From positions 1 to 64,000 of IMG/VR virus record IMGVR_UViG_3300020450_001021: a stretch of 64,000 nt of DNA, one strand, 5' to 3'. The notes below the pieces were generated by a model that was given only the letters and a program-made list of their open reading frames with translations, was not told the origin of the DNA and made no database searches. The position numbers were made by a program, and so were the translations under genes. This document shows, in pieces, positions 1,857-7,006 of this stretch. The stretch's first letter is position 1, and each line of letters begins with the position of its first letter. The DNA is from a virus.

Positions 1857-1885
1857 AAAAAAAGAGGGGTTGCGACCCCCCTCTT
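1857..1885 (-). terminator. intrinsic terminator
   Basis: AAGAGGGG/CCCCTCTT stem followed by a T7 run on the minus strand, just after the DUF4278 stop. Confidence 0.85.
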
Positions 1886-1889
1886 AATT

Positions 1890-2033
1890 TTAACTGCAAG
1901 GCGATGCCTTACTGTTAACTTTTATACCACGATACATTAGTTCGTGACGATTACGCTGTGCTGCTTCTTCAAGCACCATTGCGTTGTATTCTTCAGTGTC
2001 ATATTCGACACCACGATAAGTGACTTTTGCCAT
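1890..2033 (-). CDS. DUF4278-family peptide (GS-inactivating factor IF7/IF17-like)
   Basis: Manual translation MAKVTYRGVEYDTEEYNAMVLEEAAQRNRHELMYRGIKVNSKASPCS; two YRG motifs; lies downstream of glutamine aptamers. Confidence 0.8.
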   Translation of the reverse strand: MAKVTYRGVEYDTEEYNAMVLEEAAQRNRHELMYRGIKVNSKASPCS

Positions 2034-2065
2034 TGGTTTTTCCAAAGTAGTAGGGATTTTTGCCC

Positions 2066-2158
2066 CGTTCCTTCAGTCAACATTTGCGTCCTTCAAAAAG
2101 GATGAACGAATCCGTTCCTAGTTTGACTTACTTGCGTCCCCATTTCAGAGGATGAACG
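2066..2158 (-). ncRNA. tandem glutamine riboswitch aptamers (glnA / Downstream-peptide type)
   Basis: Two units of CGUUCAUCC-hairpin-GGACGCAA...GGAACG (2113-2158 and 2066-2108); P1 is CGUUC/GAACG; located in the DUF4278 leader. Confidence 0.8.
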
Positions 2159-2182: not shown

Positions 2183-2218
2183 ATTATATAGTCAAGTGAA
2201 ACTGTTACAACAGATACA
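2183..2218 (-). promoter_or_regulatory. -10 box with an NtcA-like site over the -35 region
   Basis: TATAAT at 2183-2188; TGT-N10-ACA (TGTATCTGTTGTAACA) at 2203-2218. Confidence 0.55.
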
Positions 2219-6829: not shown

Positions 6830-6945
6830 GTAAGACGTTTTAAATAGGGCTTCAAGGGTAGAAGCGATATTTATTTCCAGCAATCCCTCACTACTGGATA
6901 AAAGACGAAGTATTATACTGCCTATAGGTCTTGGTTTAAGAGCAG
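6830..6945 (-). ncRNA. PhotoRC-II-type cis-regulatory RNA in the psbA leader
   Basis: Hairpins CCAGUAGU-GAGGG-AUUGCUGG and GCUUC-UACCCUU-GAAGC with complementary loops (AGGG/CCCU); position matches the motif described upstream of cyanophage psbA. Confidence 0.7.
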
Positions 6946-7006
6946 TTTGTAGTCAGGGTTACGATTGTTTCGAGTCCTTCCTAATGTGTTGGTTTCCCAA
7001 CTGATC

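Follow-up and report, generated by a model that had tools for sequence, protein, structure and literature searches.

Do two glutamine aptamers that adjoin in a single viral leader act as separate sensors, or do they build one RNA structure between them? The question is raised by an element in virus record IMGVR_UViG_3300020450_001021 (IMG/VR), of which we analysed positions 1 to 64,000 (hereafter the window, 64,000 nucleotides [nt] long). There, on the minus strand, two adjoining Rfam matches to RF01739 (Glutamine, the glutamine-I or glnA family) fill 2160-2062, upstream of a short open reading frame (ORF) of the DUF4278 (IF17-like) family that starts 32 nt past G2065, so that the riboswitch lies in its 5' leader. 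The original prediction, made from the letters alone, held that the two aptamers are interlocked by a pairing between their junctions, each supplying the helix that the other lacks. We find that the inter-unit helix is real, and we consider it likely that the leader forms one RNA domain in which two nested glutamine-I-type cores share that helix; the two may act as a coupled ON switch.

A helix between the two units

The strands in question, AGUCAA (2128-2123, the a-strand) and UUGACU (2080-2075, the b-strand), are exact reverse complements on the minus strand and give, as predicted, a perfect helix of 6 base pairs (bp). Each lies where, in its RF01739 match, P2 is joined to the 3' strand of P1. 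Mononucleotide shuffles of the two junction strands contained a perfect run of at least 6 in 333 of 20,000 cases (1.7%), so that the pairing alone is only suggestive; it is conservation across relatives that settles its reality.

AGUCAA lies directly 3' of AGUA, the 5' half of loop E, and UUGACU directly 5' of GAA, the 3' half; in the window, GAA is missing from unit 1 and AGUA from unit 2. Because the halves of loop E fall in different units, the P3/loop-E arm of the glutamine-I aptamer is divided between them, and the same split (AGUA only in unit 1, GAA only in unit 2) occurs in 354 of 360 unique doubles from the larger of the two samples described below. The P3 hairpin and loop E that an RF01739 aptamer holds within itself are found in neither unit. 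The claim that the units have no self-contained P3 is correct for unit 2, where Rfam leaves a 9-nt unaligned insert, and only partly so for unit 1, where it draws a mini-hairpin at 2128-2120 (3-bp AGU/ACU with a CAA loop) overlapping the a-strand. What connects the units is one shared helix, the P3/loop-E arm of the glutamine-I fold, instead of the reciprocal supply of missing helices that had been proposed.

Covariation among relatives

Relatives were taken from six pattern scans of viral contigs, four of which returned at least 120 matches each; the samples are neither exhaustive nor random, the patterns fixed the P1 strands, and several of them fixed a change in strand a only. The scans found 390 a-halves, 361 of them with a b-half, and 11 of the 29 lacking one had <300 nt of downstream sequence. 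We parsed 277 unique doubles (139 compact and 138 with an insert) from 386 loci and counted their pairs free of alignment, by anchoring on AGUA and (G/A)AAGG. A MAFFT alignment took in 108 of the 139 compact unique doubles, the other 31 rows being left out as duplicates, for reaching the end of the locus, or for having no CGUUC within 75 nt upstream. A later, larger parse gave 360 unique doubles, of which 354 have the split arm, and 42 a-halves without a b-half.

Across the 277 unique doubles, helix positions 1, 2, 4 and 5 are paired in 98-99%: position 1 by 245 Watson-Crick and 27 G-U pairs (AU, GC, GU), position 2 by 270 and 4 (GC, AU, UA), position 4 by 270 and 1 (CG, UA, AU), and position 5 by 255 and 15 (GC, AU, GU). 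At position 8, 97 of 116 doubles are paired, 96 by Watson-Crick and 1 by G-U (UA, GC, AU). Departures in strand a are answered in strand b, which is Watson-Crick in 28 of the 31 doubles where a2 is not G, in 23 of the 26 where a4 is not C (with 1 more G-U pair), and in 26 of the 29 where a5 is not G; the 80 doubles in which a1 is not A have 52 Watson-Crick and 27 G-U pairs. Compensatory changes were thus found at five helix positions.

In the 108-row alignment, 95.2% of cells are paired, versus 87.2% after shuffling, where none of 500 shuffles comes up to the real alignment, and 28-56% once the partners are slid. Pair types run AU 59, GC 38, GU 9; GC 85, AU 11, GU 9; CG 103, UA 5; and UA 20, AU 18, GC 11, with two-sided changes at 5 of the first 6 helix pairs and at 1 of the 2 distal pairs. 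When the 84 distinct helix haplotypes are shuffled, the 3.73 of 4 core positions that are paired fall to 3.24 (standard deviation 0.04, maximum 3.39; 2,000 shuffles). The two segments therefore covary among relatives, the check that had been proposed for the pairing, and because the pairing is both real and covarying, the two units form one structural unit, as originally suggested, unlike independent tandem aptamers.

Strand register and topology

How the two units are closed is less directly visible, as the P1 strands CGUUC and GAACG each occur twice in the element. In the cis register, P1 is closed within each unit, which makes the shared helix a pseudoknot; in the swapped register, one P1 joins unit 1 CGUUC to unit 2 GAACG, the other is a hairpin of unit 1 GAACG and unit 2 CGUUC, and all helices are nested. 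Because all four P1 strands are identical, both registers give the same base pairs.

The linchpin pair separates the registers. In glutamine-II, the long-range linchpin pair C19:G41 joins the linking strand to the base that follows the helix equivalent to P1; the site requires this pair, and glutamine-I has its equivalent (Huang 2019, PMC6698751; here and below, published sources are cited for the portions accessible to us). The Rfam glutamine-I consensus has its linchpin oriented oppositely to C:G (CGG...GAACGC). A scan in which only the unit-1 linchpin base was fixed, as G, gave 76 split-arm doubles among the matches listed. GAACG of unit 2 is followed by C in every one of these 76; C follows GAACG of unit 1 in just 2 of them, the others having G (67), A (5) or U (2) there. 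The linking strand of unit 2 likewise has C in 74 of the 76, pairing with the G after GAACG of unit 1, and this second linchpin (unit 2 CGC with the base after unit 1 GAACG) is Watson-Crick in 69. Of the 354 split-arm doubles, 340 have two Watson-Crick linchpins if read in the swapped register and 272 if read in the cis register; among the 82 informative rows, Watson-Crick pairing holds for the two swapped pairs in 78 and 72 rows and for the two cis pairs in 7 and 0. For relatives in the G/G/C/C state, the cis register would give G.G and C.C linchpins. Judged by these covariations, the linchpin register of the relatives is strand swapped.

Other features agree with a nested fold. In the 354 split-arm doubles, the linker between the units (counting the G) has lengths of 3 nt (242 doubles), 4 nt (96), 5 nt (12) and 6 nt (4), so that 338 have a linker of hairpin-loop size (3-4 nt). 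The RNAfold minimum free energy (MFE) structure of 2160-2058 is exactly the nested fold, and an unsupervised RNAalifold consensus picks the outer P1 and the inner hairpin. By our reasoning, the strands of both cores would also stay connected in the canonical manner (Huang 2019) in the nested fold. We further counted the gene context in its favor, since a promoter-like site, the DUF4278 ORF and a terminator flank the double element. The topology is most likely that of a nested, strand-swapped double aptamer, and the linchpin covariation favors such a fold over the interlocked pair of self-closed aptamers that was first put forward.

Several observations pull the other way. At helix position 3, 154 of 277 doubles have a Watson-Crick pair and none a G-U pair, and the remaining 123 are non-Watson-Crick, mostly C.A (65) or A.C (53); position 6 is often unpaired; the b-strands of the window's closest helix subfamily show single mismatches (UUGACC, UAGACU); and unit 1 is able to form its local AGU/ACU mini-hairpin. 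Direct P1 covariation could not serve as a test, the four strands being invariant and fixed by the patterns. The inner linchpin is C.A or C.U in 7 of 76 doubles. The G/G/C/C evidence comes from 68 unique rows with 15 helix haplotypes, 5 of which are common to the C/G/C/G state, and these rows may trace to few evolutionary events; the linchpins of the window itself are C/G/C/G, compatible with both registers. The folding energy is unexceptional (z = -0.55, with 56 of 200 shuffles folding as well), and the shared helix itself is absent from the RNAalifold consensus. With flanks included, RNAfold gives as MFE structure a different mix, and thermodynamics was not used as evidence of function.

Two side observations concern the helix strands and P1. 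Position 3 (U2126-A2077 in the window) is C.A or A.C in two large families and position 6 often has an unpaired A, oddities that may reflect A+.C wobbles or a site of tertiary contact. The few P1 "variants" in the alignment, one row each, stem from misaligned rows (L298, L373).

Weighing of alternative folds

The interlocked pseudoknot, with each unit keeping its own P1 (2158-2154/2117-2113 and 2108-2104/2070-2066) and AGUCAA/UUGACU as an inter-aptamer pairing, gains from the facts that Rfam aligns each unit as a separate aptamer, that the P1 strands belonging to unit 1 emerge first during transcription, and that the window's linchpins, C/G in both units, fit the cis register. We nonetheless consider it distinctly unlikely: only 2 of the 76 relatives with a unit-1 linchpin G offer the cis C partner, unit 2 would have a C.C cis pair in 74 of the 76, none of the 82 informative rows has a Watson-Crick cis pair there, and the connector is not longer where the helix is, 8-bp helices keeping a connector of 1 nt. 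Loop E would also put the linking strand of unit 1 on the P1 of unit 2 with P2a tethered elsewhere, which we reason to be in conflict with the core geometry of Huang 2019. A dynamic version, in which unit 1 closes its own P1 co-transcriptionally and then swaps to the nested form, the exchange being part of the switch, appeals to the identity of the four P1 strands, which makes the registers isoenergetic in base pairs, and to relatives whose P2b can enclose an ORF of ~140-190 nt, delaying the b-half; since G/G/C/C relatives have neither linchpin in the cis register, such an exchange strikes us as improbable.

Covariation establishes that two strands pair but does not say in which state they do so, and the inter-unit helix might accordingly belong to a ligand-free OFF conformer alone, with glutamine giving two independent, P3-less aptamers. 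Conserved alternative helices are common in riboswitch leaders, and the local mini-hairpin is possible in unit 1. Yet the halves of loop E, an element of the glutamine-I junction architecture (PMC6698751), flank the helix exactly, the swapped linchpin pairs require that the units be brought together, and the candidate OFF helix has other partners, namely CUGAAG and the Shine-Dalgarno region; we rate this conformer as very unlikely to be the sole home of the helix. That the complement arose by chance between ordinary independent, pseudo-cooperative tandem aptamers is scarcely credible. The 6-bp match is matched in the 1.7% of shuffles noted above, and 157 glutamine doublets are filed as pseudo-cooperative by Sherlock 2022 (PMC9481103), but the compensatory changes at five helix positions and the failure of any of 500 shuffles to reach the observed pairing speak against coincidence. 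True side-by-side tandems also look different: the 4 unique rows of this kind (L492, L399, L448, L487) have an AGUA-GAA hairpin in each unit, linkers of 6-7 nt and G:C linchpins. A complete aptamer and an expression platform for each unit, the marks of independent tandems, are absent here, with the arm split and the helix shared, and the 3-4 nt between units in 338 of 354 doubles leave no room for a separate expression platform.

Proposed fold and switching mechanism

In the nested, strand-swapped fold that we favor (Table 1), the outer core would be closed by CGUUC at 2158-2154 with GAACG at 2070-2066 and would include P2a and the CGC strand at 2136-2134 (C2134:G2065), together with a canonical loop E composed of AGUA from unit 1 and GAA from unit 2. 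AGUCAA/UUGACU would be the P3 arm of this outer core, and the far end of the same helix would open into a circularly permuted inner core, made of the hairpin of unit 1 GAACG and unit 2 CGUUC closed by the short linker, P2b, and CGC with the pair C2086:G2112. Both cores presumably bind glutamine. Ligand bound at the inner core would stabilize the shared helix and, through it, the outer core, coupling the two sites and steepening the response, so that sensing of the two ligands is possibly cooperative.

In the ligand-free state, CUGAAG-GAACGG (2076-2065) would pair with CUUUGG (2047-2042) over the Shine-Dalgarno region, as well as with the run of C at 2055-2053. Once formed, the outer core would take CUGAAG/GAACGG out of this alternative pairing and free the ribosome site, turning translation ON at high glutamine. 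The MFE fold with flanks does pair CUGAAG (2076-2071) with CUUUGG (2047-2042). Among 347 relatives, CUAAAG occurs with CUUCAGGAG in 0 rows, with CUUUAGGAG in 53 and with CUUUGGAG in 10, and CUGAAG occurs with CUUCAGGAG in 27, a distribution that fits a putative anti-Shine-Dalgarno helix. We infer ON-switch control of the DUF4278 peptide gene, in agreement with the ON action of glutamine riboswitches (Klahn 2018, PMC6212724).

The inner hairpin (2104-2117, minus strand), which reads GAACGGAUUCGUUC and precedes AUCCUUUUUG, is flagged in a terminator scan. Because the U run after the hairpin is the 5' side and loop of P2b, the flag is probably incidental, although transcription may stop prematurely at the inner hairpin in the ligand-free state.

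Table 1. Features of the double aptamer and of the surrounding locus, in window coordinates
Feature	Position	Strand	Basis or score
Unit 1	2160-2111	-	RF01739, 33.2 bits in one search, 41.9 in another; gathering score 35
Unit 2	2110-2062	-	RF01739, 37.2 bits; gathering score 35
CGUUC(a), outer P1 5' strand under the nested model (partner 2070-2066)	2154..2158	-	Invariant in relatives, pattern-fixed
P2a hairpin UCCUC/GGGGA, loop UGAAAU	2137..2152	-	First three pairs covary, 108 relatives
Core a linking strand CGC; linchpin C2134, proposed partner G2065	2134..2136	-	Huang 2019 geometry and linchpin covariation
AGUA, 5' half of loop E, unit 1 only	2129..2132	-	Rfam consensus
a-strand of shared helix, AGUCAA	2123..2128	-	Covariation
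Connector ACUA and G2118, preceding unit 1 GAACG	2118..2122	-	ACU alternatively closes local 3-bp hairpin with AGU
GAACG(a), 5' strand of inner P1 hairpin, and G2112, proposed linchpin partner of C2086	2112..2117	-	Folding, linchpin register
AUU, with G2112 the 4-nt loop of the inner hairpin (linker)	2109..2111	-	
CGUUC(b), 3' strand of inner P1 hairpin	2104..2108	-	Folding
P2b hairpin UCCUU/AAGGA, loop UUUG	2089..2102	-	Covaries in 108 relatives
Core b linking strand CGC; linchpin C2086	2086..2088	-	Linchpin covariation
b-strand of shared helix, UUGACU	2075..2080	-	Covariation
GAA, 3' half of loop E, unit 2 only	2072..2074	-	Rfam consensus
G2071, GAACG(b) (outer P1 3' strand, 2070-2066) and linchpin G2065	2065..2071	-	
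CUUUGG (2047-2042) overlapping weak Shine-Dalgarno-like GGAA (2043-2040)	2040..2047	-	Proposed ligand-free partner of CUGAAG (2076-2071)
Promoter-like site TTGTAA, 16 nt, TATAAT, upstream of leader	2183..2210	-	10/12 consensus matches; consensus only
47-codon ORF MAKVTYRG..., DUF4278 (IF17-like)	1890..2033	-	Pfam PF14105, 26.4 bits, cut-off 25.3
Intrinsic-terminator-like hairpin and U run	1860..1885	-	11 pairs
PhotoRC-II RNA (RF01717)	6863-6961	-	59.4 bits; gathering score 39

Comparison with known riboswitches

The closest known system is glutamine-I itself (RF01739), as in the Synechocystis gifB/IF17 leader (Klahn 2018, PMC6212724), with which the element shares P1, the P2 hairpin, the CGN linchpin strand, and the AGUA/GAA loop E beside P3. 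The downstream gene is alike as well, being DUF4278/IF17-like, a family linked to glutamine riboswitches in the same study, and ligand and ON logic are probably the same. Unlike in glutamine-I, P3 is here a helix of two units and not a hairpin, each P1 would be built from strands of different units, and the far end of P3 would carry a second, circularly permuted core with no loop E of its own.

The likeness to glutamine-II (RF01704, the Downstream-peptide motif) that had been drawn is of a different kind. The ligand site is near identical, and the linchpin C19:G41 is oriented as in the window (PMC6698751). Glutamine-II was said to replace P3 with a pseudoknot; in the account of Huang 2019 accessible to us, it has no P3 equivalent, and its pseudoknot is the equivalent of P1. 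It also has no loop E but does have a 3' helix P2. Both units score below the RF01704 gathering score of 33, unit 2 at 31.0 bits and unit 1 at 17.8 bits. A glutamine-II-type P2 for unit 2 was considered and rejected: the window's UUGAC/GGCAA forms 4 of 5 pairs, with non-standard marks, and shows no covariation. Two relatives have GUGGA/UCCAC (L003, L128), but two others keep the downstream UCCAC with a different b-strand (L161, L175). In the glutamine-II crystal, strands were exchanged between two riboswitches, and a form made of two pieces also assembled with glutamine (PMC6698751), which shows this core to be compatible with strand exchange.

Catalogued tandems (Weinberg 2010, PMC2864571; Sherlock 2022, PMC9481103) consist of two aptamer-like units a few nt apart, among which the window would count as a doublet. 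The latter work lists 157 glutamine doublets and 4 triplets, termed pseudo-cooperative, and, in the portions accessible to us, such tandems are treated as separate, complete riboswitches, whereas our data point to a single unit that has a shared helix and one expression platform.

In glycine riboswitches, each aptamer is a three-way junction closed on its own, and the aptamers are held together by tertiary contacts, with neither a shared Watson-Crick helix nor a swapped P1. The tandem glycine riboswitch does resemble the element in having two homologous ligand domains and one expression platform (PMC5066625, PMC5666159). We found no description of a nested, shared-helix or split-loop-E glutamine riboswitch in the literature searched, and an earlier account is possible (Ames & Breaker 2011, Ren 2015, or supplements); within that literature, the evidence suggests a previously undescribed architecture of the known glutamine-I class.

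We extend this reading tentatively, and with slightly more doubt than confidence, to the proposal that most cyanophage "tandem" glutamine riboswitches are strand-swapped nested doubles, with sites at both ends of P3, that act as cooperative, steep ON switches and tolerate ORFs in their P2 loops. If so, a catalogued class of tandems would have to be reread as one two-site sensor with a single platform, not two sensors, and would offer a second natural model of RNA ligand cooperativity after glycine, working through a shared helix and swapped strands, as well as a case of natural RNA domain swapping fixed in cis. It would also bear on how cyanophages read host nitrogen status, as glutamine, to control small IF17-like proteins. 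In the part accessible to us, McCown 2017 found only two glutamine aptamers in cyanophage genomes. Because single-aptamer models of the Rfam type give near-threshold scores and represent neither the shared helix nor the gene-containing variants, surveys probably undercount and misdescribe these elements.

Variant layouts and their occurrence

The layout varies in size. Of the 277 unique relatives, 138 (L004, L005 and L008 among them) have an insert of 60-700 nt within P2 of unit 2, beginning with an AUG directly after CGUUCAUCC. Many such relatives look like a single aptamer with a decoy P1 strand, the second CGUUCAUCC seeming to run into the AUG, a reading rejected because the b-half is present 60-700 nt downstream in the form CGC...b-strand-(G/A)AAGGAACG; P2b of such relatives encloses an insert the size of an ORF. 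Phage P-SSM7 (L511:402-690) has an annotated ORF, PSSM7_205, inside P2b, and in two other loci (L506, L509) it is P2a that is long, at ~200 nt. One relative (L412) has AGUA in both units and GAA after both the a- and b-strands, so that loop E is possible at each end of the helix; it could be the fully symmetric form expected under the nested model.

Three cultured phages have the double layout, P-TIM68 and S-PM2 in compact form and P-SSM7 with its insert in P2b, which makes the layout directly testable. A scan of cellular contigs (genome_contigs) returned 5 matches, of which L505, L506 and L509 parse as doubles and L507 (Massilia) and L508 do not. The contigs of the three doubles are filed under a Dehalococcoidia metagenome-assembled genome, a Rhodospirillaceae metagenome-assembled genome and a Prochlorococcus single-cell genome, and the doubles probably represent phage DNA that entered the binned or single-cell assemblies.

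Locus and transcription

The window is part of an 84.6-kb virus record with psbD-like and talC-like ORFs, genes of the cyanomyovirus type. Metatranscriptome contigs from Logan (4 runs, 3 studies), mostly 88-95% alike and hence from relatives, map to parts of 1881-2197, a contig of 118 nt covers 2037-2156, and the shares of matched words are small (0.05-0.07); no Logan metatranscriptome contig was found on 1850-1877 or 2200-2250. Such contigs show neither ends nor strand and may derive from library DNA, and they prove neither transcription nor transcript ends.

The minus strand also has ORFs at 906-1259 and 2-436. By eye, one of the two is NdhI-like, with two ferredoxin-type CxxCxxCxxxCP motifs, and the other is SpeD-like; in phage S-PM2, an annotated SpeD gene adjoins that phage's own double riboswitch.

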